From the NCBI GenBank assembly GCA_963705305.1, contig OY970067.1, positions 736,001 to 800,000 of the forward strand: a stretch of DNA of 64,000 nt, given 5' to 3'. Every line of letters begins with the position of its first letter. The stretch's first letter is position 1. The position numbers and the translations under genes were made by a program. This DNA comes from an uncultured Methylomirabilota bacterium (GTDB lineage: Bacteria; Methylomirabilota; Methylomirabilia; Methylomirabilales; 2-02-FULL-66-22). Positions 2,445 to 39,277 of the stretch are shown here, one piece after another. Below the pieces are notes generated by a model. The model did not search any database, was not told the origin of the DNA, and was given only the letters and a program-made list of their open reading frames with translations.

Positions 2445-3502
2445 TAGGGGACGTTGCCAACTACAGCAATTTGTTCCAGAGCGCGTCCCATCGGGCCGTG
2501 GCTTGCTGCCCCCGCCGGACAGCGGCGTAGACGGCCTGGGGGAGATCCCGAGCACCTGGGCCAGAGGCCGAGCGGCGCGGCCGGCGCGCGCGACCCAGAG
2601 ATACGCGATCCCCTCCCGGGTGCGGGAGACGGCCGCCCGCCGGTTCCCGCCTTGCAGTGCCTGGGCGGTGATTCCCGCCTCCCGGCAGACCCGTCCCACC
2701 AGACGGGGCAAGGACAGGCCTCGGGCCGACGCCGGCGACTGGGCCTCCACTTGGCGGCGGAGGTCCTCCACGAACTCGCTGCTTCCGAGAATTCGCTCGT
2801 CCCCCAGATAGGCTTCCCGCCCCCGCCGGAGGGCTGCCACGACGGCCCAGCCGCCCAGACTGCGGATCAGCCCCCCGCCCTGCAGGTCCGGTCGACGGCC
2901 TTGCGGGACCCCGGCCGCTACAAAGGCGCGGTAGCCGGCCCGGGCGCGGCGACGGGTGGGGCCGAAGCGGCCGAGGACCTCCTCGGTTGCCTGCCAGGAA
3001 CGGGGGACGGTCCCCAGGAGGGCACTGTGGCCGGTCCAGGGGTACCGGTCGAGGCGACGGAGTGTTGCCACGACGCCGGCCCGGATTGGATTCAGGTGCA
3101 GGTAGCGGACGAGCTCGAGGAAGTACGGCTCCGCTTCCACGACCACGGACTTGTACCGGTTCTGAAACAGGTGCCCCGCCCGCCGATGGCGCCGGTTGAA
3201 GGCCCCGGCGTAGCCGGTCAGGAGACTGCGCATACTGCGGGCCAGGGGGCGCGTCCCGGTGCGGACGAGCAGGTGGGCATGGTTCGGCAGGAGCGCCCAC
3301 GCGAACAGCGTCCAAGCGCCTGCCGCCGCCAAGGCCGCCAGGCGAGCGACGAAGTCTTCCCGGTCTCGGTCGTCCCGGAACACGGCGCGCCGCTCGATCC
3401 CGCGCACCATGACATGGTGCAGGACATTGGGGGCATCCAGCCGGGGTCCCCGAGGCATGCGGGGAGGATAGCAGCGATTGGTCTATTTGGCAACGTCCCC
3501 TA
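2445..3502. mobile_element. RAYT-like HUH (Y1) transposase element bounded by perfect 16-bp inverted repeats
   Basis: TAGGGGACGTTGCCAA at 2445-2460 and TTGGCAACGTCCCCTA at 3487-3502 enclose the transposase gene exactly. Confidence 0.75.
2461..3458 (-). pseudogene. REP-associated tyrosine transposase (IS200/IS605-like Y1_Tnp) with C-terminal HTH; 1-bp frameshift near the 3' end
   Basis: MPRGPR...HHVMVRG, PNHAHLL (HUH), GHLFQNRYKS and YLHLNP motifs; a G5 run at 2538-2542 shifts the frame, and one extra G restores ...GISPQAVYAAVRRG...NKLL* ending at 2461. Confidence 0.8.
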
Positions 3503-3602
3503 TTCCGTCCTATTCCGTCCCCGTCTCAATGCTCGGCGCCCGCTTCCGTTTGGTGTTGGCGTGTCGCAAGCTGCGCTAACGGGCAATCCTCCGAACGGCG
3601 GG

Positions 3603-6920: not shown

Positions 6921-7748
6921 CTACTCCTTCAACCCCGTGATCGCGATCCCTTGGATGAACGACCGCTGGAGGAAGAAGAACAGCAGGATCATGGGGAGCG
7001 TCCCAATGGCGGCAACGGCCATGAGCTGATCCCAGGCCGTGCCGAAGCTGCTCATGAAGAGCGAGATGCCCAGCGGCAGCGTGCGCAGGGAATCCTTCGT
7101 TACGATGATGAGCGGCCAGATGTACATGTCCCAGGCCTCTCGGAAGGTGAAGACCCCCAGGGCCGCCAGCGCGGGCTTGCAAAGCGGCAGCACGATCTGC
7201 GCGTAGATGCGCAGCTCGGACGCCCCGTCGATCCGTGCCGCTTCGATCAACTCGTTTGGGATCCCCAGCAGGTACTGCCGCATCAGGAAGACGCCGAAGC
7301 CCTCCACCAGGAACGGCACGATCAGGCCGGAGTAGGTGTTGGGCCAGTTCAGCTTCTTGATGATCAGGAAGAGGGGCACCATCGTCACTTCCAGCGGCAG
7401 CATCATCGTGCTCAGAATCAGGAGAAAGAGGAAGTTACGCCCGAAGTAGCGGAACTTGCTGAGGCTGTACCCGGCAAGGGAGGCCAAGAGCAGGTTGCCG
7501 ACGGTGATGGCCACGGACACCGCCGTCGAATTCAAAATGTACCGGGTGAAGTCCTGCGCCCGCCAGGCCTCGCCGTAGGCGCTCCAGTTGGCCGGGTGGG
7601 GCACCCACTGGGGCGGGACGGCGAACATGTTGGCGTTGGTCTTGAACGAGCAGGACACCATCCAGTAGTAGGGCAGCAGCCCGATCAGCCCGATGAGGAT
7701 CAGGAGCGGGTAGAGGACGAACGCCCGGAGGCGAGCGGACCGGCCCAT
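6921..7748 (-). CDS. Carbohydrate ABC transporter permease (MalG-like)
   Basis: EAARIDGA loop and TM segments. Confidence 0.92.
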   Translation of the reverse strand: MGRSARLRAFVLYPLLILIGLIGLLPYYWMVSCSFKTNANMFAVPPQWVPHPANWSAYGEAWRAQDFTRYILNSTAVSVAITVGNLLLASLAGYSLSKFRYFGRNFLFLLILSTMMLPLEVTMVPLFLIIKKLNWPNTYSGLIVPFLVEGFGVFLMRQYLLGIPNELIEAARIDGASELRIYAQIVLPLCKPALAALGVFTFREAWDMYIWPLIIVTKDSLRTLPLGISLFMSSFGTAWDQLMAVAAIGTLPMILLFFFLQRSFIQGIAITGLKE

Positions 7749-30889: not shown

Positions 30890-31012
30890 CGTTCTGCGGG
30901 CGACGACGTCGGCCCGGCCGGTATCATCTCTGACTATGGCACGGCGCTCGACGCCGCGCACCGTCACGTGGTGGAGGATCCCGGGGGCATCCAGCCGGGG
31001 CCCCCGAGGCAT
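30890..31012 (-). pseudogene. RAYT-like transposase, 5' fragment
   Basis: MPRGPRLDAPGILHHVTVRGVERR...DDTGRAD, near-identical to 34387-34502; end motifs at 30728-30740, about 30806-30816 and 31114-31126. Confidence 0.85.
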
Positions 31013-31158: not shown

Positions 31159-32793
31159 TCACTTCGAGAATACCGGCTCCTCCTTGCTGATGACTTCCAG
31201 CAGGGCGGGGCGGCAGCGGTCGGCGACGGCCAGCGCTCGGTGGGCCGCGGGGATGATCTCCGCCGGTTTCTCCACCACCTCTGCCCACGCCCCCAGGCCT
31301 TCCGCTATCTTGCTGTAGCTCCCCGATAGGAAGCGAGTCCCATAGCGCTCCGTGGCGACCTTGAGATGCTTGTCGTAGCCGCCCAGGCACGAGTTGTTGA
31401 GGAGGACGGTCACGATGCCGATCTTGTTCCGGACCGCCGTCTCCAGGTCCATCCCGCATTGGCCGAAGGCGGCATCGCCCAGGACGTGCACGACGGTCGC
31501 CTCGGGCCGGGCCACCTTGGCGCCCATGGCAAGGGGCAGGCTGTAGCCCAGATGCGTTGAGCGCCCCCAGCCGAGGTAGCTGTTCGGCTCCACGGCGCTC
31601 CAGAAGGGCGTCATCTGGTCGCGCGGGTTCCCGGCGTCGTGCGTGACGACCATGTCGCGCCCCTGCACGGCCTCCTGGAGATCATGGACCACCCGGTACG
31701 GATTCACGGGCGTCTCGTCCGAGGTGAGCCTCGGCATCCACTCGGCCAGCCACGCCTCCTTGATCCCCCGGATCTGCTTCGCAACGCGGTCATTCCCCTT
31801 GCGGCCATCGGGGCCCAGGAGCCGCTTGGCTTCCTCGATCATCTGTCGCAGGGTGAGCTTCGCATCCCCCGTCAGGAGGTGCTGGGCCAGGTAGTCCTTG
31901 TTCAGATCGCGGTCGTCCACCGTGAGCTGGACCCCGACCTTTCCCCGGGGGATCGGCGCAGCAAAGGGGGAAATGGAGAGGCTGGCTCCGGCACCGAAGA
32001 TACAATCCGCCTCGGCCAGGAACTGTGTGACCACCCGGGGCCAGGCCATGCCGCCGCACCCGATGCTGAGGGGATGGTTCTCGGGGAAGGCGCTCTTGCC
32101 GGACAGGGTGGTCATCACCGGCGCCTGCAGCAGTTCGGCGAACTCCTGGAGCTCCGGCGACGCCTCCGCGTAGAGCACCCCGTGCCCGGCGTGGATGAGG
32201 GGCAGCTTCGCCGCGACGATGGCCTTGACCGCGGCTGCCACGTCGCCGGGGTCGGCCATGGATCGCGCCCCCTTGACGGGCGTATACGAGCGGGCCGCAT
32301 CGTCACACTCGGCCGCCGTCAGGTCGGTGGGCAACTCCAGGACGATCGGCCCCCGCCGTCCGGTCCGCAGGTAGGTGAAGGCGCGGCGCAGGAATTCCGG
32401 GATGCGGTCGGCGCGATTGACGCGCGCCACCCACTTGCTGATCTCCTGGAAATTGGGGACGGCCTCGAAATTGGGCCTCGCGCCCATCCGGGCCTCCGCA
32501 ATGCCGCCGGGCAGAAAGAGGATGGGGCTCGAGTCCGAGTAGGCCTGCGCCAATCCCCCGAAGGAGTTCTCAACGCCCGGGCCGTGCTGGACTGCGCAGA
32601 CGCCGATGCGCCGCCCGCCGGTGACCCGGGCGTAGCCGTCGGCCATGCCGATCACTCCCCGCTCGGTCCGCGCCATGATGGGGCGGATGCCCAGCGCCGC
32701 GGCGGCGTCGATCAGGTGGTTGATGGGAAAGCAGAAGAGATGCTCGACATTCTCCTGCTTGAGGATACTCGCGACGGCTGCTGCACCCTTCAT
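31159..32793 (-). CDS. Thiamine pyrophosphate-requiring enzyme (acetolactate synthase-like)
   Basis: R.ER...MADGY, GPGVEN, LSGKSAFPENHPL and GDAA...NN TPP motifs. Confidence 0.9.
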   Translation of the reverse strand: MKGAAAVASILKQENVEHLFCFPINHLIDAAAALGIRPIMARTERGVIGMADGYARVTGGRRIGVCAVQHGPGVENSFGGLAQAYSDSSPILFLPGGIAEARMGARPNFEAVPNFQEISKWVARVNRADRIPEFLRRAFTYLRTGRRGPIVLELPTDLTAAECDDAARSYTPVKGARSMADPGDVAAAVKAIVAAKLPLIHAGHGVLYAEASPELQEFAELLQAPVMTTLSGKSAFPENHPLSIGCGGMAWPRVVTQFLAEADCIFGAGASLSISPFAAPIPRGKVGVQLTVDDRDLNKDYLAQHLLTGDAKLTLRQMIEEAKRLLGPDGRKGNDRVAKQIRGIKEAWLAEWMPRLTSDETPVNPYRVVHDLQEAVQGRDMVVTHDAGNPRDQMTPFWSAVEPNSYLGWGRSTHLGYSLPLAMGAKVARPEATVVHVLGDAAFGQCGMDLETAVRNKIGIVTVLLNNSCLGGYDKHLKVATERYGTRFLSGSYSKIAEGLGAWAEVVEKPAEIIPAAHRALAVADRCRPALLEVISKEEPVFSK

Positions 32794-32877
32794 GTCGGCT
32801 CTCCCGTCTTGAGTGTTGCGCGTGGAATCGCCGTCCTCCCGGCTGCCAGACTTCAGCTCTTGAGGGTCAATCCCGTA

Positions 32878-33076
32878 CACACCCTCGCCCCTCGGGAGCA
32901 TCGGCCCCCAGGAACACAAAAGCCCCCGAGGGATGCGGAGGTCCACCGGGGGCCGTCAGCTTCGCACGCCAGGAGCTGTCCGGTCGGATCATTGCCTCCT
33001 TCAGGCCGCCTCGCTGGGCACCGAGATCATCCGCGCAACACCCTACTTCTCACCAGAGGGCCTAGTCAAGATGAAA
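32878..33076 (-). repeat. About 200-bp promoter-leader-terminator module, copy C
   Basis: Colinear and highly similar to 37992-38191; TTGACT-18-TAGGGT; GCCCCCG/CGGGGGC hairpin followed by TTTTGT. Confidence 0.8.
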
Positions 33077-33403
33077 GAGACGCGGACGGGGGAGGGAGGC
33101 GAAGCCTCACGAGACGGCACCTTTCAGGACGGCCTGCCTCTCGAGGCCGCGCACCACCATGTGTGGAGGGTCCCGGGGGTATCGAGGTGAGGGTTCCGGG
33201 CCGCGGTCGCCCTCCGCCTAGCCTTCAGTCCCCAGGGGCTGGAGGGCAGCCAAGCAGAATTCACGCTTTCGAGGAACGCCCCGCACACCCGGCCAAAAGG
33301 TTAGGACAATTAGGCCACAACGTCCCCTTCACAACCTCCCCTTCAATAAACCTGAATGTGATGACGAGGGAGAGCAAGAGGAGGCGACGCGGCTGGGTTC
33401 TGG

Positions 33404-33679
33404 CTATTCGTAGACGACATAATGAGGGCCGATACTGTGAAAGAGGACCTCGTCGGCCCCAAGGAACTCGAACACAACTCGGACATCCCGCGTCACAGAG
33501 AAAGCCCAGAGATCTTGCAGTCGACCCAAGAGCTTGTGGGTGCGTAAGGGAGGGTCGAAGGCGTCCGCGCGAAAGAGGCACTCTCGGGCTTCGGCGATCT
33601 CCTGGATTTCGGGCGTCAGACCCTTGTACTGGCGGGCGAAATGCGAGGTGACCCGGATGGTTGCAATCGGGCGTTTCAC
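33404..33679 (-). CDS. Type II toxin, RelE/ParE/YafQ-like mRNA interferase
   Basis: F.RQYK.L, LRTHKL.G, W.FSV...R and IGPH motifs; GTGA overlap with the antitoxin. Confidence 0.88.
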   Translation of the reverse strand: MKRPIATIRVTSHFARQYKGLTPEIQEIAEARECLFRADAFDPPLRTHKLLGRLQDLWAFSVTRDVRVVFEFLGADEVLFHSIGPHYVVYE

Positions 33680-33939
33680 CGGAGATCTGCCAGGGACTTA
33701 ATCCTGCGGGTCTTCCCCCGCCTGTGCTCGTCACGGCCTTCTGCCACGACGCGCAGCAGATGTTCCTCTTCCAGCTCTCGCAGGCGGCTCTGCATGGCCT
33801 CGAAGGTCTCATAATCAAGCAAGACCGCGACGGGCCGTGACCGCTGGATCAAGGTCCACGGCTGCCTGTGCTCACGCAACTCACGGACGACCTGGGTGAC
33901 GCCCTGACGGAGGCCGCTGATGCTGATAATCTTGGGCAC
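33676..33939 (-). CDS. Type II antitoxin, Phd/YefM family
   Basis: ISISGLRQ...P..L.QRSRPVAVLLDYE motif; GTG start after GGAG. Confidence 0.88.
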   Translation of the reverse strand: MPKIISISGLRQGVTQVVRELREHRQPWTLIQRSRPVAVLLDYETFEAMQSRLRELEEEHLLRVVAEGRDEHRRGKTRRIKSLADLR

Positions 33940-33969
33940 CTTCTCCACCTTCCCGTTGCTTGTATTGTT

Positions 33970-33998
33970 AACGTATATGTTGACAGTACAGATGTCAA
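33970..33998 (-). promoter_or_regulatory. TA promoter with palindromic operator
   Basis: TTGACA-17-TACGTT; inverted repeat TTGACA-N7-TGTCAA at 33980-33998. Confidence 0.7.
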
Positions 33999-34039
33999 GA
34001 CAAAAGGCCTGTCGCAGGTCAGCAAAAATGTCCGCCTCC

Positions 34040-34502
34040 ACCGGACGGCGCGGCGCGGGCTGGCGCCGAACTGGGCCAGGATGGTCCCCGTGTCTTGCCC
34101 GATCCGGGGGACGCTCCCGAGGAGGGTGCTGTGGTCGGTCCAGGGGTAGCGGACCAATTCCAGGAGGTACGGTTCCTCCTCCACGACGACCGACTTATAC
34201 CGATTCTGGAAGAGGTGGCCGGCGCGCTTGTAGCGCCGATTGAAAGCGCCGGCGTAGCCCGTGAGGAGGCTTCGCATGCTCCGGGGCAAGGGGCGCTGGC
34301 CCGTCCGGACCAGGAGGTGGGCGTGGTTCGGGAGGAGGGCCCAGGCGTACACCGCGAGGGCCCTGTTCTCCGCGAGGGTTGCGAGGCGGGCGACGATGTC
34401 GGCCCGGCCGGTATCATCCCTGACTATGACACGGCGCTCGACGCCGCGCACCGTCACGTGGCGGAGGATCCCGGGGGCATCCAGCCGGGGTCCGTGAGGC
34501 AT
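34040..34502 (-). pseudogene. RAYT-like transposase, truncated and internally deleted
   Basis: Matches the N-half of the 2461-3458 copy; ELVRYPWT shows loss of LHLNP...LDRY; end motif TTGGCAACGTCCCCTA at 34531-34546. Confidence 0.88.
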
Positions 34503-34682
34503 AGCGGGAGGATAGTCGTGATTGTTCTATTTGGCAACGTCCCCTATTCCGTTTTTACGTCCCCTATTCCGTCATTACGCTCTTTCCGTCCTGTTCCGTA
34601 TTCCGTTAAAGGAGCGGACAGAATCCCTGATCCGTTCGAGCGGACAAGTTTGCTGAGCTACCACACCCCGGAAGCATCGGCC

Positions 34683-34845
34683 TTGACAGAGCGAAATAGT
34701 CAGGAGTAGCCTCCGGCCCGTTGCCCACCCTTGTGTTGGCGGATGAAGGAGGCTCCATGGGGTCGGCGCGGGACGGCTCCCCGAACGCGAGCCAAGCCGG
34801 CGGCGCGGCCCATCTGCTAGTGCCAGCCCACGGGTGGCTTTGTCC
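34683..34845 (+). promoter_or_regulatory. Promoter plus conserved leader (copy B)
   Basis: TTGACA-18-TAGCCT, then GTTGCCC...GAAGGAGGCTCCATGGGGTCGGCGCGGGACGGCTCC. Confidence 0.55.
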
Positions 34846-35315
34846 CCTCTCGAGCCACGAGCCGCCGCCCTCCTCCGGATCCCGGGGTATCTCGGCACGG
34901 TCCTGCGACAGCCTCCCGGCTTCCGCGCCTCTCTCCAGTGCGTCGCCGTTGACCGGCCTTCCGGACCTCCCCCACTTTTCCCGCACCCCCCGTTGCGCGG
35001 CCACCCCACCCGTGGAAGCGGGCAGTGACATCCGTGCCGTGGCGGGGCGTCCCGGCCGCCAGGACGGCAACGCCCCGAGGATCCCCACGCGCGTGCTCAA
35101 CCGAGGCAAGGTGGAAGCCTGCAGTCCAGGGGATGCGTTAAGGGTACTGTCCGCCGGCATGGGGCGAAACCATTCGCCGCCGGCAAAAGAGCGGGAAGGT
35201 TTGGGCACGACAAGGCGAACGACGGCTTCGCACCGCTTGCCGGCTCCGAAGCCGCCTGGCGAAGGGGCAGACGCCCCACGCACGGGTCCCTAACACCGCA
35301 AGGGAGAAGACGACA

Positions 35316-36458
35316 ATGAGAGACGTCAGGCGTGTTGTGTTGATTGCCTTGGTATCCACCGTGTTGGTTGCAGCCGCGGCGGCCAGCGGCGCTGCCGCCG
35401 AGATCCCCATCGCCGCCACACTCAACATCACCGGGCCGACCGCCTCGCAGGGCGTGCTCTTCGGAAATGCCGCCAAGCTGGCCGTGAAGCAGATCAACGC
35501 TACGGGCGGGGTGAACGGCAAGCGCATCAACCTGATCCCGGAAGACGCCCAGTCCAGCAACTTTGGTGCGCTTGCCGCACTGAACAAGGCCATTGAGAAG
35601 GACAAGGCGCTGGTCGTACTGGGACCGTCCCTGAGCACGATGATCCAGGCGATGTCCGAGACGGACAAGAACGCGGGCGTGCCCTTCGCCACCGGCGGCA
35701 CGGCCGTCAAGAACACCCACATGGGTAACCCCTGGATCTTCCGCCTCCGGCCGGACGATTCTATCTCCGCCGCGGCCATGATCCAGTTCATCAAGAACGA
35801 CCTGGGGCTCACCAAGGTCGGGATTCTCCACGACACCGATGCCTTCGGCTCTGGCGGGGCGGCCTTGCTGGAGCAGTACAGCAAGGAGCAGGGGATCACG
35901 GTGGTCAAGGACTTGGGGTACACCGGCGACACCAAGGACTACACCGCCCAACTCCTGGCAATTAAGGACGCGGGAGCGCAGATCCTCTGCACCTACGTCC
36001 CCCGCCCCGAGGATGGCGCCCTCATCCAGCGCCAGTACCACGATTTGGCCCTCCCTTACAAGTACATGGGGTCCGCCTCCAACGCCGAACGGGACACGCT
36101 GGCTCTGTCCAAGGACTCGGCCGCGGGGATCTACGTGGCTATTGATTTCATGCCCGGCGTGACCGAGGAATCCAAAAAGTACGAGGAGGCATACCAGAAG
36201 GAGTACGGTCAGCCGGCAGATGCGCTGTCGGCCTTTAACTACGACGCCATCAATATCTTCGCCAAGGCCATCGGCGCGGCGGGCGAAGACCGGGCCAAGA
36301 TCATGCCCTACATCCTCAACCTCCACGGCTACCGGGGGGCCGTCGGCACCTTCGACTTCACCCCTAACGGGGATGGCCTGCACGCAAACACCATCATCCA
36401 GGTCGAGAAGGGGGGTCACCTGAAGTTCCTGAAGGTGGTCACGGTTCAGTCGCACTAG
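35316..36458 (+). CDS. ABC substrate-binding protein (branched-chain amino acid/LivJ-like), orphan
   Basis: Signal peptide; INATGGVNGKRI, FRLRPDD, DYTAQL and YDAI motifs. Confidence 0.9.
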   Translation: MRDVRRVVLIALVSTVLVAAAAASGAAAEIPIAATLNITGPTASQGVLFGNAAKLAVKQINATGGVNGKRINLIPEDAQSSNFGALAALNKAIEKDKALVVLGPSLSTMIQAMSETDKNAGVPFATGGTAVKNTHMGNPWIFRLRPDDSISAAAMIQFIKNDLGLTKVGILHDTDAFGSGGAALLEQYSKEQGITVVKDLGYTGDTKDYTAQLLAIKDAGAQILCTYVPRPEDGALIQRQYHDLALPYKYMGSASNAERDTLALSKDSAAGIYVAIDFMPGVTEESKKYEEAYQKEYGQPADALSAFNYDAINIFAKAIGAAGEDRAKIMPYILNLHGYRGAVGTFDFTPNGDGLHANTIIQVEKGGHLKFLKVVTVQSH

Positions 36459-36959
36459 CGGGCGGCGAGCAATGCCTCTCTCGTCCCGCAGGCCAGGGAG
36501 AGGGAGCAGGCAGGCGCTCTCGTCCTGGCGGGCATGGCATCCGCAGGGGGGCATTGCGGCGCCACGTGGGACGCCGGTGCGGAGGGCATGCGGCCCGGGG
36601 CGGAGGTCCCGGCGGCTAGGCCCGGTGCGATTGTACCCGAGGCGTAGCCGCTTGGCGCAAGCTACCCGGGTAGAGAGGCGAGGTTGCTCGCGGGAAATGA
36701 CCTCAAGATGAGAGCTCGGCTCCGGCGGGTCTTTTGTGGCCCGCCGGAGCCGCTCGGGATGGAAAGGACGGAAACGGGGCCCCAACCAGGGCGATATGGA
36801 GCATACTGGCAGGTAATCTGATCTGCTGCGCGCGCGGGTGGGTCCTCATGGAGCCTTTGACCTCACACGCCTCCGATTGCGAGCCAGAGCTTCCAGGGCA
36901 ACCGCGTGCCACGCCCGCCCAATGCCATGCCGTTAAGGTGCAGGCGCCGAAGGCGACTG

Positions 36960-37916
36960 TCAGCTTCGACCGCCTGTTATACCGCTCACACCCGGCCAAC
37001 ACTCCGCGCGCAGCCAATCTACGAGCCGCCTCGCCAGCTCGATTCGATGAGCAGAGAACACGTGGTCGTCGTCGAGGACCGCCTCCGTTAACCGCTCCGC
37101 GCGTGCCTGACGCAAAGCGGCGACCACTCTGTCGTGGTGATCGGCCTTCGGCGTTAGTCCATCACGCGCGGCCGCCGCCAGGAGAAGGGGTCGGGTCGCC
37201 AAATCGGCCGTGCGGGATGGGACGCTCCACGCCTCCGCATGGCTCACTATCTCGCTGGCAACGCGCCGCGGATCTCCGTGGACGGGACCACCCCTCGCAT
37301 CCATGCCTTGATGGAAGAGGGACTCCAGCCCTGCGAGGGCGCTCGCGTCTTCGCGCGCCCGCAGACCCATCCAGCCAAGATCGGCCCCGGCTAGGAAGGC
37401 GAGGCACGCGATGCGCTCGTCCTTGGCGGTCGTAATCGCACCGAGGAATCCACCGAGGCTGTGGCCAGCCAGCGCCACGCGGTCGGGGTCCGCCCGGTAC
37501 GCCGACGCCCACGCTTCACTCCGCGCTCGCTCCACGGCCGTCGCCACGTCCTCAAGCGCGTGCGCGATCGAGAACTTGCCGCCGCTCCCCCACGTGCCCC
37601 GGTAATTGAAGTAAAGCACGTTCATGCCGGCTCGCCTCACAGCCTGCGCCAGGTCGAGATTCCGCTCGTTGCCGGGGTAGCCGTGCAGGATTATGACCGT
37701 CGGGTGCGGACCGGGCCCGTTGGCCACGTACATGAGCCCATTGAGTTTGCTTCCGCCGCTCTCGAATGACAACCCCTCCATGGTGGGGGGGAACGCCGAG
37801 TCCACCGCGGCGTCCGCGGTGGTCGGATGATCGATCTGCGACGCAGCGCGTTGCGCGGCAGACGAGGCGAAGGACGTCGCAGAGTCCGCCACAAAGCCAT
37901 TTGACCACTCTCTCAT
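36960..37916 (-). CDS. Alpha/beta hydrolase
   Basis: HGYPGNE, YRGTWGS, GHSLGG nucleophile elbow and DDH motif. Confidence 0.88.
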   Translation of the reverse strand: MREWSNGFVADSATSFASSAAQRAASQIDHPTTADAAVDSAFPPTMEGLSFESGGSKLNGLMYVANGPGPHPTVIILHGYPGNERNLDLAQAVRRAGMNVLYFNYRGTWGSGGKFSIAHALEDVATAVERARSEAWASAYRADPDRVALAGHSLGGFLGAITTAKDERIACLAFLAGADLGWMGLRAREDASALAGLESLFHQGMDARGGPVHGDPRRVASEIVSHAEAWSVPSRTADLATRPLLLAAAARDGLTPKADHHDRVVAALRQARAERLTEAVLDDDHVFSAHRIELARRLVDWLRAECWPGVSGITGGRS

Positions 37917-37991
37917 GCGTGTTTCCTTTATGTAATGGGGGGCATTGCCAAACTCGTCACCTTGCGGGGAGAACGATCCCGCCACACCTAC

Positions 37992-38191
37992 CACACCCTC
38001 ACCCCTCGAGGGCATCGATCCCCAAGAGCACAAGAGCCCCCGGGGATCCGGAGATCCACCGGGGGCCGTCAGGTTCGCACGCCAGGAGCTTTCCTGGTCG
38101 GCACCTTCGCCTCCTTCAGGCCGCCTAGCTGGGCATCAAGATTATCCGCGCAAGACCCTATCTCTCACCAGAGGGGCTAGTCAAGATGAAA
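37992..38191 (-). repeat. About 200-bp promoter-leader-terminator module, copy D
   Basis: Similar to 32878-33076; hairpins CCAGGA-AAGC-TCCTGG and GCCCCCGG/CCGGGGGC. Confidence 0.8.
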
Positions 38192-38332
38192 TGGACGGGG
38201 GCGGGGGAGCGAGGCAAGCCTTCATAAGACGATGCTTTTCAGAATCGCCAAACCCGAGGACTACCCAGGTCTCCCGGGTTCGGTGGCACCCGATCGAAGC
38301 TCTTTGAAGTAGCGCAATCAGGCCTGTCCCGT

Positions 38333-39277
38333 TCACGCCTTCTTGGTCAGTCTGTCGACCTCCGCCAATTCCTCCGGGGTCAGGGCCCACTCAACCGCCT
38401 TCACGTTCTGCTCCACCTGCTCTGGGCGCGTGGCGCCGGCGATCACGCTGCACACCCGCGGCCGGGCGGCCAGCCAGCTAAACGCCAGCTCCAGCAGGCT
38501 ATGGCCCCGCCTGGCGCAGAACGCCTCCAGTCGCTCCACGATCTCCCAGTTCGCGGCCGTCAGGTAGCGATCGGCGAGCCGCTGCGTCTTTGCCAGGCGC
38601 GTCCCTTCCGGGAGGGGTGCATTCCGCTTGTACTTGCCGGTGAGGAGGCCGGAGGCCAGCGGGAAGTACGGCAACAGGCCGAGCCCGTACGCCTCCATCG
38701 CCGGTACCAGCTCGCGCTCTGGATCGCGCACGACCAGGCTATACTCGTCCTGGCACGAGACGAAGCCGTTCACGCGGAGGTGCCGGGCCGTCCACTGCGC
38801 CTCCACCACCTGCCAGGCGGGGAGGTTGGAGCAGCCGATGTAGCGCACCTTGCCCTGGCGAATCAGGTCCTCCAGGGTGCGGAGGGTCTCCTCGATCGGC
38901 GTCGCGGGATCCGGATAATGGAGCTGGTACAGGTCGATCCAGTCGGTCCGGAGCCGCCGCAGGCTGGCCTCCGCCGCCGACAGGATGTAGCGGCGCGAGG
39001 CCCCCTTGAGCACCCCGGCGTCATCCATGGGGCCGCTGAACTTGGTCGCCAGGATGATGTCCTTGCGCCGATCACCCAGGATCTGGCCCAGGACGGTTTC
39101 CGAGCCGCCGCGCTCGCCGTAAATGTCCGCCGTGTCGAACAGGGTGATTCCGAGATCCAGGGCCCGGTGGACGACCCGCCGGGATGCCTCCAGATCGATC
39201 CGCCCGCCGAAATTGTTGCAGCCCAGGCCGACCAGGGATACCTGAAGGCCGGATGTACCAAGATTTCGCTGCTGCAT
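38333..39277 (-). CDS. Aldo/keto reductase
   Basis: GLGCNNFG, FDTADIY, ATKF, IDLYQLH and GKVRYIGCSN motifs. Confidence 0.93.
   Translation of the reverse strand: MQQRNLGTSGLQVSLVGLGCNNFGGRIDLEASRRVVHRALDLGITLFDTADIYGERGGSETVLGQILGDRRKDIILATKFSGPMDDAGVLKGASRRYILSAAEASLRRLRTDWIDLYQLHYPDPATPIEETLRTLEDLIRQGKVRYIGCSNLPAWQVVEAQWTARHLRVNGFVSCQDEYSLVVRDPERELVPAMEAYGLGLLPYFPLASGLLTGKYKRNAPLPEGTRLAKTQRLADRYLTAANWEIVERLEAFCARRGHSLLELAFSWLAARPRVCSVIAGATRPEQVEQNVKAVEWALTPEELAEVDRLTKKA

Follow-up and report, generated by a model that had tools for sequence, protein, structure and literature searches.

A repeated promoter-leader-terminator cassette upstream of unrelated genes in a Methylomirabilota genus: a candidate mobile promoter with a putative attenuator

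Introduction

Why should two unrelated enzymes be preceded by the same leader sequence? The question is raised by a stretch of 64,000 nt from an uncultured Methylomirabilota bacterium (GenBank assembly GCA_963705305.1, contig OY970067.1, positions 736,001 to 800,000 of the forward strand), hereafter the window, in which two homologous minus-strand segments, copy C and copy D, lie upstream of genes for a thiamine pyrophosphate (TPP)-dependent enzyme and an alpha/beta hydrolase, respectively. A reading of the letters alone, made without database searches (the sequence-only reading), had described the two as a duplicated leader-terminator module, and had offered as explanations a new riboswitch or attenuator, or a portable expression module. 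In our analysis, the observation itself was confirmed and its interpretation was partly supported. The best explanation, to which we assign a probability of roughly 0.55 from comparative sequence evidence, is that both segments are copies of a reused mobile promoter-leader cassette carrying a ligand-independent, probably translation-coupled attenuator.

Results

Two copies of a genus-restricted family

Copies C and D are 84.6-85% identical across 250-253 nt by BLAST and by pairwise alignment (BLAST E = 2e-70 to 1e-70), which far exceeds chance. Their homology covers positions 32870-33130 and 37992-38242 of the window, somewhat beyond the limits first proposed, and a third copy in the genome is 86-91% identical to them. 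As had been described, each carries a TTGACT-18-TAGGGT promoter with an 18-nt spacer between the -35 and -10 elements, a conserved leader, and a GC-rich hairpin with a U-rich tail.

The source genome, a single contig of 5.65 Mb with 66% G+C, contains eight copies: six found by BLAST, all on the minus strand, and two diverged ones (genome positions 1862055 and 182225) found by a covariance model that we built from 11 cassette copies. Such a model, built from copies in the genome and its relatives, had been suggested as a check on the first interpretation, and it yielded many further instances with some covariation. Within the genus, 18 of 21 genomes (the source genome counted) had a match at E ≤ 0.01; about 45 matches fell below 1e-8, with a maximum of 15 per genome, and about 50 copies overall were judged good. 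Breadth outside the genus was judged by the covariance model in sampled genomes of the order and the phylum, where it gave one marginal match (7e-5) in 45 genomes of the order, and none at E ≤ 1e-5 in a phylum sample of 143 genomes, which came from 53 other genera. BLAST found the cassette in none of 40 genomes of the order outside the genus, and blastn in distant mode found no match to it in plasmid and phage collections.

We also searched for a known RNA family, as the sequence-only reading had recommended. The Rfam 15 scan of the whole window gave no match at the gathering score, and at E ≤ 10 the region 32600-38600 gave seven chance-level matches, none of them relevant; a microRNA model with a threshold of 90 bits gave the sole match touching a copy, at 18 bits. 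In the literature, we found nothing pairing 'Methylomirabil' with 'riboswitch', and RNA elements of the phylum were absent among the best-ranked papers of a broader search. The cassette family is real, sizeable and uncatalogued, and it is a genus-restricted intergenic unit with a patchy distribution within the genus.

Promoter, leader and terminator form one unit

The cassette spans approximately 330-400 nt and acts as a single unit. Among 49 copies, identity is at least 90% in the -35 block and 80-90% in the -10 block, while the spacer, which contains a short inverted repeat, reaches 50-80% and positions farther upstream only 30-45%. When a profile of the promoter block was run against the source genome, its matches at E ≤ 4e-4 were the eight leader copies and no others (8/8). 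Because the promoter block occurs only together with the leader, the two constitute one unit, rather than a regulon motif used elsewhere. On the minus strand of the window, the promoter of copy C occupies 33040..33069 (-35 at 33064-33069, -10 at 33040-33045), as assigned from its sequence and the 49-copy conservation, and that of copy D occupies 38155..38184 (-35 at 38179-38184, -10 at 38155-38160). The leader RNAs that follow are 134 nt long in copy C (32906..33039; covariance-model match of 119.9 bits, E 6e-28) and 135 nt in copy D (38020..38154; 139.1 bits, E 9e-33).

The consensus fold of the covariance model consists of four helices. Helix 1 is a 5-pair hairpin covering a purine-rich ribosome-binding site, helix 2 is a 9-pair hairpin that begins at a start codon, and the remaining two helices make up the long, two-part stem of the terminator. 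In 51 distinct rows, 86.4% of the cells in these helices are paired, compared with 83.4% in shuffled alignments (0 of 500 reached the observed value), and only 40-61% when the partners are slid. Two-sided changes were seen at 20 pairs over all four helices, a count reached by 2 of 500 shuffles; all five pairs of helix 1 show them, as do some of the 9-pair helix, and these numbers are to be read with the fact that the alignment was fitted to the covariance model, which favours pairing counts. An independent scan of column pairs recovered one long conserved helix, the 14-bp terminator, with 92% of its cells paired, and otherwise helices of only 4-5 bp. Covariation sits mostly in the terminator stem. 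The consensus of the tail after the hairpin is U-rich, and an expression platform of 14-bp hairpin and U-rich tail is present across the family. In copy C, the G+C-rich hairpin lies at 32922-32954, where a simple terminator scan also flagged it, with its U-rich tail at 32911-32921; in copy D, the corresponding positions are 38036-38067 and 38024-38035, and the leader as a single sequence folds, hairpin included, with a z-score of -2.56. A hairpin in the first 30 nt of the leader was ruled out, as shuffled sequences fold equally well there (-7.3 for the leader vs -7.5 kcal/mol). The sequence-only reading had also proposed a GGAG/CTCC-type pairing of the ribosome-binding site: a 4-bp helix of this kind is possible in 85% of the copies, but in the column-pair scan it was indistinguishable from chance in G+C-rich RNA.

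A second conserved block of about 30 nt follows on the 3' side of the terminator in part of the family. Searched for over 160 nt, its core of six letters turned up in 21 of 50 copies, compared with 3 in a control window, and it sits at one of two preferred distances, about 36 or about 70 nt past the end of the model. A motif profile from the source genome matched the block at +180 to +187 in about 12 copies, and copies that carry it have one or two units. Copy D has the block at 37925..37968, in the same orientation as its leader (motif-profile match at +186 from the leader start, E 9e-5; genome match at 773930, E 0.007). On the other side of the cassette, directly 5' of the -35 element, 14 of the 46 copies with enough flank show a tandem repeat with a period of 7, 14, 21 or 28 (examples are the loci L010, at about 7104-7160, L046 and L059).

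The cassette is reused in front of unrelated genes

For the genes behind the cassette, we ran Pfam on the longest same-strand open reading frame (ORF) beginning within about 450 nt of each copy. Neighbour strand was not called by ORF length, which left 23 of 46 downstream cases undecided at 66% G+C; Pfam support was used instead. A Pfam-supported gene on the same strand follows 32 of 45 copies (5 of the 6 strong copies in the source genome and 27 of 39 in relatives), and only 2 of the remaining 13 have a Pfam-supported convergent gene. The resulting ratio of 32 to 2 corresponds to a binomial p of 7e-8, for copies that are kin and not independent. In several copies, the ribosome-binding site of the gene begins 13-30 nt past the last conserved block, which leaves no room for a separate promoter, so that the cassette promoter would drive the gene through the hairpin.

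The genes themselves belong to more than 20 unrelated Pfam families behind about 50 copies. Pfam bore out the two enzymes that had been named in the window: the TPP-dependent enzyme behind copy C (31159..32793, minus strand; TPP_enzyme_N/M/C, E 1e-25 to 5e-29), after which come genes for a DinB-like protein (DUF1572/DinB_2) and a TRAP transporter (DctQ, DctM, DctP), and the alpha/beta hydrolase behind copy D (36960..37916, minus strand; Peptidase_S9, Hydrolase_4, Abhydrolase_1/6). The other strong copies in the source genome precede an MFS transporter with a URO-D-like gene, AbiU2 with an FRG protein, DsbA with a rhodanese protein and, in one case, an unknown 209-aa protein; behind the two diverged copies lie a collagen-like ORF and an operon that includes a Peripla_BP_6 binding protein. 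In relatives, we found transporters (TRAP, TAXI-like TAtT and ABC binding proteins, at 10 copies, and LysE), enzymes (HAD hydrolase, RNB ribonuclease of the RNase II type, catalase, zinc alcohol dehydrogenase (ADH), aldehyde:ferredoxin oxidoreductase, DNA methylase and URO-D), and AsmA, an ECF sigma factor and collagen-like repeats. A second TPP enzyme behind a relative's copy is only 29% identical to the one in the window, and is therefore a paralogue. Transporter binding proteins are over-represented (11 of about 52 downstream genes). No pathway is common to the downstream genes, among which those for exported and membrane proteins are frequent.

A midpoint-rooted FastTree tree of the copies, based on a short alignment that covers the promoter through the first 60 nt after the terminator, places all six strong source-genome copies in one monophyletic group despite the unrelated genes behind them, and three copies from another genome (G016), which precede DctP, ADH and SBP_bac_5 genes, cluster as well. 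The pairing of cassette and collagen-like gene has been kept in three genomes. From the tree, vertical retention and within-genome spread or gene conversion both appear to occur.

The locus of the TPP enzyme allows a comparison of filled and empty sites. Orthologues with 75-78% identity in four relatives (G005, G009, G004 and G013) have no cassette, which supports a recent gain in the source genome; the closest public records of the enzyme are 79-80% identical. Upstream of the four orthologues, another gene ends 0-190 nt away, and homology to the source genome begins about 30 nt before the ATG; in the source genome, a Y1 transposase gene, repeats and the cassette replace that upstream gene. 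The comparison amounts to a larger rearrangement, in which no clean junction can be read for a target-site duplication. The hydrolase behind copy D was found in one of five related genomes searched, and is therefore an accessory gene. A portable expression module, the second suggestion of the sequence-only reading, is thus supported, as far as sequence comparison goes, by multiple copies before unrelated genes, by their clustering by genome and by absence from the TPP locus of four relatives.

Two observations concern these orthologous loci themselves. The sole hydrolase orthologue found (L071; G009:C85:2761-3612) is 48% identical and has two in-frame TGA codons, being either a pseudogene or a gene with selenocysteine codons. 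The regions 5' of the TPP orthologues in G005 and G004 (L072 and L074) are short intergenic regions with unrelated short tandem repeats of their own.

A short ORF in front of the terminator

The start codon at which helix 2 begins opens a short ORF. At the family start position, 41 of 49 copies have ATG, 4 have GTG and 4 have other codons, so that 45 of 49 have a start, located 6-8 nt after the conserved purine-rich stretch. In 44 of 49 copies, no stop interrupts the start frame before the end of the hairpin, compared with 33 and 35 of 49 for the other two frames (Fisher p = 0.013 and 0.039, again for copies that are kin). Translations look alike across the first 16 residues, and after the hairpin loop they continue in one of two frames, depending on the copy.

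In attenuation of the pyrBI type, a ribosome trailing the polymerase prevents the terminator from forming. An attenuator, which the sequence-only reading had listed among its candidates, is plausible here too, because compensatory changes accompany the conservation of the hairpin and U-rich tail, and because a start codon and its ribosome-binding site lie 5' of the hairpin. The cassette would then consist of a sigma-70-type promoter and the 5' leader of the gene behind it. Its hairpin would serve as an intrinsic terminator: some transcripts would end there, giving an RNA of about 130 nt, while the rest would read through. The fraction reading through would be set without a ligand: a ribosome starting at the conserved start codon, close behind RNA polymerase, would keep the hairpin from forming, and the two small helices over the ribosome-binding site and start codon would tune initiation. 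The cassette would act as a mobile promoter, placed by copying or recombination upstream of new genes that are often accessory or rearranged.

Several findings weigh against this explanation. The ratio of nonsynonymous to synonymous differences (pN/pS) over codons 2-16 is 0.70 in the start frame, against 0.68 and 1.16 in the second and third frames; over these codons, just 33 of 51 rows lack indels, two of those 33 having in-frame stops, and 18 of 51 contain frameshifts. Peptide-level selection on the short ORF is ruled out by the nearly equal pN/pS of two frames together with the frequent indels, and by the same pN/pS values and frameshifts neither regulatory codons nor a conserved arrest peptide could be recognized in it. 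Judged by these comparisons, conservation of the short ORF is at the nucleotide level, and that of the start codon may reflect RNA or DNA constraints instead of translation. The excess of open start frames is modest, considering that the copies are related. The column-pair scan found no conserved antiterminator pairing, the alternatives being 4-5 bp long. The two copies in the window are themselves atypical, and fit a translation model poorly. In copy C (ribosome-binding site at 32995-33000), a 1-nt deletion has removed the family start, and an ATG 3 nt upstream, in another frame, is used instead (32990-32992); it opens the 41-codon ORF (32867..32992) that had been described, which runs off the family frame until a later 1-nt insertion restores it. 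Copy D lacks that ATG, as had also been described; it has a GTG at the family start position (38102-38104), and a 1-nt insertion leads to a stop after 11 codons, before the hairpin, so that copy D cannot be translated into the hairpin. The sequence-only reading had taken the missing start in copy D to favour RNA-level conservation, an outcome that holds by pN/pS, except that the start codon itself has proved to be conserved in the family. At the level of genomes, the covariance model found no copies in three well-assembled members of the genus (G005, which is 98% complete in 6 contigs, G009 and G013), and therefore no essential host process can depend on the cassette. Finally, some copies group by orthologous gene across species (the collagen-like gene in G006 and G020, a signal-peptide protein in G016 and G020), and clustering by genome could be due to gene conversion, not transposition.

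A bolder proposal, which we regard as rather doubtful, is that a self-contained mobile attenuator copies itself upstream of genes that are newly acquired or have been rearranged, and wires them into a genus-specific regulon that reads a global signal, through ribosome-polymerase coupling or a dedicated antitermination factor, with the transposon-end-like second block as a handle for mobilisation.

Transposon ends and other flanking sequences

The sequence-only reading had pointed to end motifs at 33318 and 38323, beyond the two copies. The first is real, and the second is not. The motif of about 29 nt lies at 33301..33329 on the plus strand, inverted relative to the cassette and about 230 nt upstream of the copy C promoter, and BLAST found six to seven more copies in the genome (100% and 94% copies are at genome 230351-230379, 227865-227896, 2411881, 5409824 and 5410916). 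Beyond it lies a Y1 (IS200-like) transposase gene (33849..34502, minus strand; Pfam Y1_Tnp, E 2e-6), which is part of the context and outside the cassette. Both this motif and the second block of the cassette, including that of copy D, resemble the repeats of about 30 nt that bound Y1 copies as inverted pairs some 0.9-1.0 kb apart (e.g., genome 490227/491137, 738449/739489 and 1845266/1846176). The Y1 family of the source genome, with about 20 homologous stretches and 16 family matches, appears by its sequence organisation to be TIRtron-like, with genes resembling those for REP-associated tyrosine transposases (RAYT) and inverted repeats; REP denotes repetitive extragenic palindromes and TIR terminal inverted repeats. 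In the window, partial Y1 homologues are also present at 30896-31012 and 3326-3508, and motif pairs at 2444-2480 and 3470-3510.

We asked whether the cassette itself could belong to a known class of transposon derivative. An inverted copy of the motif within 900 nt upstream was found for only 2 of 50 cassette copies; a TIR-bounded miniature inverted-repeat transposable element is ruled out by the absence of a flanking inverted repeat in the other 48. A REP, or a REP doublet forming a hairpin (REPIN), is ruled out as well: by BLAST, the hairpin does not occur in the genome beyond the cassette copies, i.e., its palindrome is not dispersed on its own. Neither is the number of Y1 transposase genes a predictor of the number of cassettes (Spearman 0.21, p 0.36, in 21 genomes). 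A lone fragment of 95 nt at genome 5111168-5111260, 85% identical, contains the post-terminator part and a transposon-end-like block, without promoter or leader.

In the upstream flank of the copy at genome 516544, beside an integrase gene, 26 nt match the 3' end of tRNA-Leu(CAA) at 92%, and copies C and D have a degenerate version of this flank. No tRNA gene adjoins the copies at the 47 loci checked, and tRNA adjacency as a general feature is ruled out, with the 3'-end fragment present at one copy only. The fragment itself (genome 516745-516770, L009) lies beside a tyrosine-integrase gene, and the intact tRNA-Leu(CAA) gene (genome 552102-552187, L024) is 35 kb away; together they have the look of att ends, which would enclose an integrated island of some 35 kb with IS481-type transposase genes.

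Two further features lie near the copies in the window. Between the Y1 transposase gene and copy C, positions 33140-33186 hold a 47-nt repeat with about 10 copies in the genome (79-83% identity, both strands), which may be REP-like. A CRISPR direct-repeat model, whose threshold is 39 bits, scored only 18-19 bits (E 3-5) at 35039-35088 and 35373-35411 on the plus strand; both weak matches fall within an ORF of 562 codons that has no Pfam match, and are probably due to chance.

Discussion

Alternative explanations

If the promoter and terminator do not serve the gene behind them, the cassette could be a stand-alone small RNA, small-protein or dual-function gene, whose terminated transcript of about 130 nt acts in trans, much as multi-copy sRNA families or liberated attenuator RNAs do, while the genes behind use other promoters, for example in the second block. 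We consider this unlikely. It would account for the conserved promoter of its own and the terminator at a fixed distance, for the convergent gene behind two copies, and for the hexamers at promoter-like spacing that many second blocks contain; moreover, part of the text of PMC6614838 describes an attenuator RNA acting in trans. It does not account for the strong co-orientation with the next gene (32 vs 2). Only about 21 of 50 copies have the second block, and some genes have their ribosome-binding site directly after it, so that a transcript from there would lack that site. In addition, no conserved single-stranded seed is apparent besides the ribosome-binding site of the leader.

A second alternative keeps the read-through of the preferred explanation, in which a ribosome acts on the hairpin, and replaces the ribosome with a protein. 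A short transcript that is made constitutively and terminated ahead of diverse, often accessory genes is reminiscent of antitermination-factor systems, and the cassette might be the loading site for a dedicated factor of this sort (Q/qut, RfaH/ops, LoaP or RNA-binding antiterminators), which would be recruited by the spacer, the initial transcribed region or the helices and would let polymerase pass the hairpin. The conservation of the spacer above that of the upstream flank (50-80% vs 30-45%) and the short inverted repeat within it would fit such a site, and a second NusG-family gene is found in most genomes of the genus. The NusG paralogue is also present in the cassette-free genomes G005, G009 and G013, with two matches each; since its presence does not distinguish carriers from non-carriers, it is ruled out as a co-occurring factor. 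As no regulator gene recurs beside the copies and no curated RNA family matches them, we hold a dedicated factor to be improbable.

In our view, it is equally improbable that the cassette is the remnant of a mobile element (a Y1 transposon end or the edge of an integrative element), a selfish or neutral repeat with accidental promoter- and hairpin-like sequence and no selected role. The likeness of the second block to Y1 terminal repeats, the location of three copies in an island rich in Y1 relics, the tRNA-Leu 3'-end flank and integrase gene at one copy, the patchy distribution and the frequent frameshifts in the short ORF are all what one would expect of such a relic. Against it stand the lack of a flanking inverted terminal repeat in 48 of 50 copies and a copy number independent of that of Y1 genes. 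In addition, the -35 and -10 elements, the start codon and the compensated hairpin are far better kept than neighbouring positions, orientation to genes is non-random, and cassette-gene pairs are retained across species, such as that with the collagen-like gene in three genomes.

Very little credence is due to the main idea of the sequence-only reading, a riboswitch that binds a metabolite or ion and has the terminator as its expression platform: a conserved leader does precede a terminator, the two short helices show some covariation (5/5 pairs in helix 1) and transporter binding proteins are over-represented downstream, but it is unsupported by any Rfam match, by a multi-helix aptamer with strong covariation (the 5' 30 nt are unstructured relative to shuffles and the helices besides the terminator are only 4-5 bp long) or by a common pathway, given downstream functions as unrelated as TPP enzymes, hydrolase, catalase, DNA methylase, AbiU2, ECF sigma factor, RNB, DsbA, collagen-like proteins and diverse transporters, and its copies have propagated within a genome.

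Relation to known systems

The cassette is of a kind already known, a repeated and reused promoter-leader element, and its unusual feature is the built-in unit of short ORF and terminator. The closest description is that of putative mobile promoters (PMPs; Matus-Garcia, Nijveen & van Passel 2012; commentary PMC3575422), defined as non-coding sequences of a single genome that are at least 80% identical for 50 nt or more and lie upstream of non-homologous genes; such promoters can bring regulatory RNA motifs with them, and their mode of movement is unknown (PMC3575422). Copies C and D fall within this definition, being 85% identical over 250 nt, with a TPP enzyme and a hydrolase that are not paralogous. 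Unlike most PMP families, which are pairs, the cassette has eight copies here and about 50 in the genus. It also has a defined architecture of promoter, short ORF, terminator and transposon-end-like block, which is partly kept at orthologous loci.

With leader-peptide attenuators, especially those of the pyrBI and pyrE type, the cassette shares a short leader ORF with a ribosome-binding site, an intrinsic terminator in or after the ORF, and the structural gene behind it. It differs from them in having no tandem regulatory codons, conserved antiterminator, constrained peptide or single-pathway set of genes, and in being a multi-copy element that propagates. Correia elements, enterobacterial repetitive intergenic consensus (ERIC) sequences and REPINs are promoter-bearing miniature repeats (PMC3575422), and like the cassette they are repeated intergenic elements that put promoters, sometimes also terminators or processing sites, beside unrelated genes. 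Those elements are palindromic or bounded by inverted repeats and occur in both orientations, whereas 48 of 50 cassette copies lack flanking inverted repeats, and the cassette nearly always points the same way as its gene. TIRtrons, or TIRYT, are described in part of the account by Di Nocera et al. (2013, PMC3733652) as RAYT-like Y1 genes flanked by TIRs, some of which share a G-rich motif. To the extent of that description, the G-rich TIR motif is of similar type to the repeats bounding the Y1 copies in our genome, which the second block and the 33301-33329 motif resemble; the cassette differs in containing no transposase, in having the motif on one side only and in a copy number unlinked to Y1 genes. 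Lastly, the riboswitches and cis-regulatory families of Rfam 15 resemble it in being 5' leaders that end in a terminator hairpin, but it matches none of them, has no coherent gene set behind it, and no complex aptamer fold was found in it.

Significance

The case illustrates that duplicated leader-terminator modules before unrelated enzymes need not be riboswitches. The family provides about 50 natural variants of one promoter and terminator unit, which could be used to study translation-coupled termination, and in these genomes the cassette is a marker for recently rearranged loci. If it works in the way we propose, a lineage known almost only from metagenomes would be supplying unrelated genes, accessory and defence genes among them, with a ready-made promoter that has an attenuator built in, and this would be a sequence-defined case of regulatory rewiring by promoter reuse.

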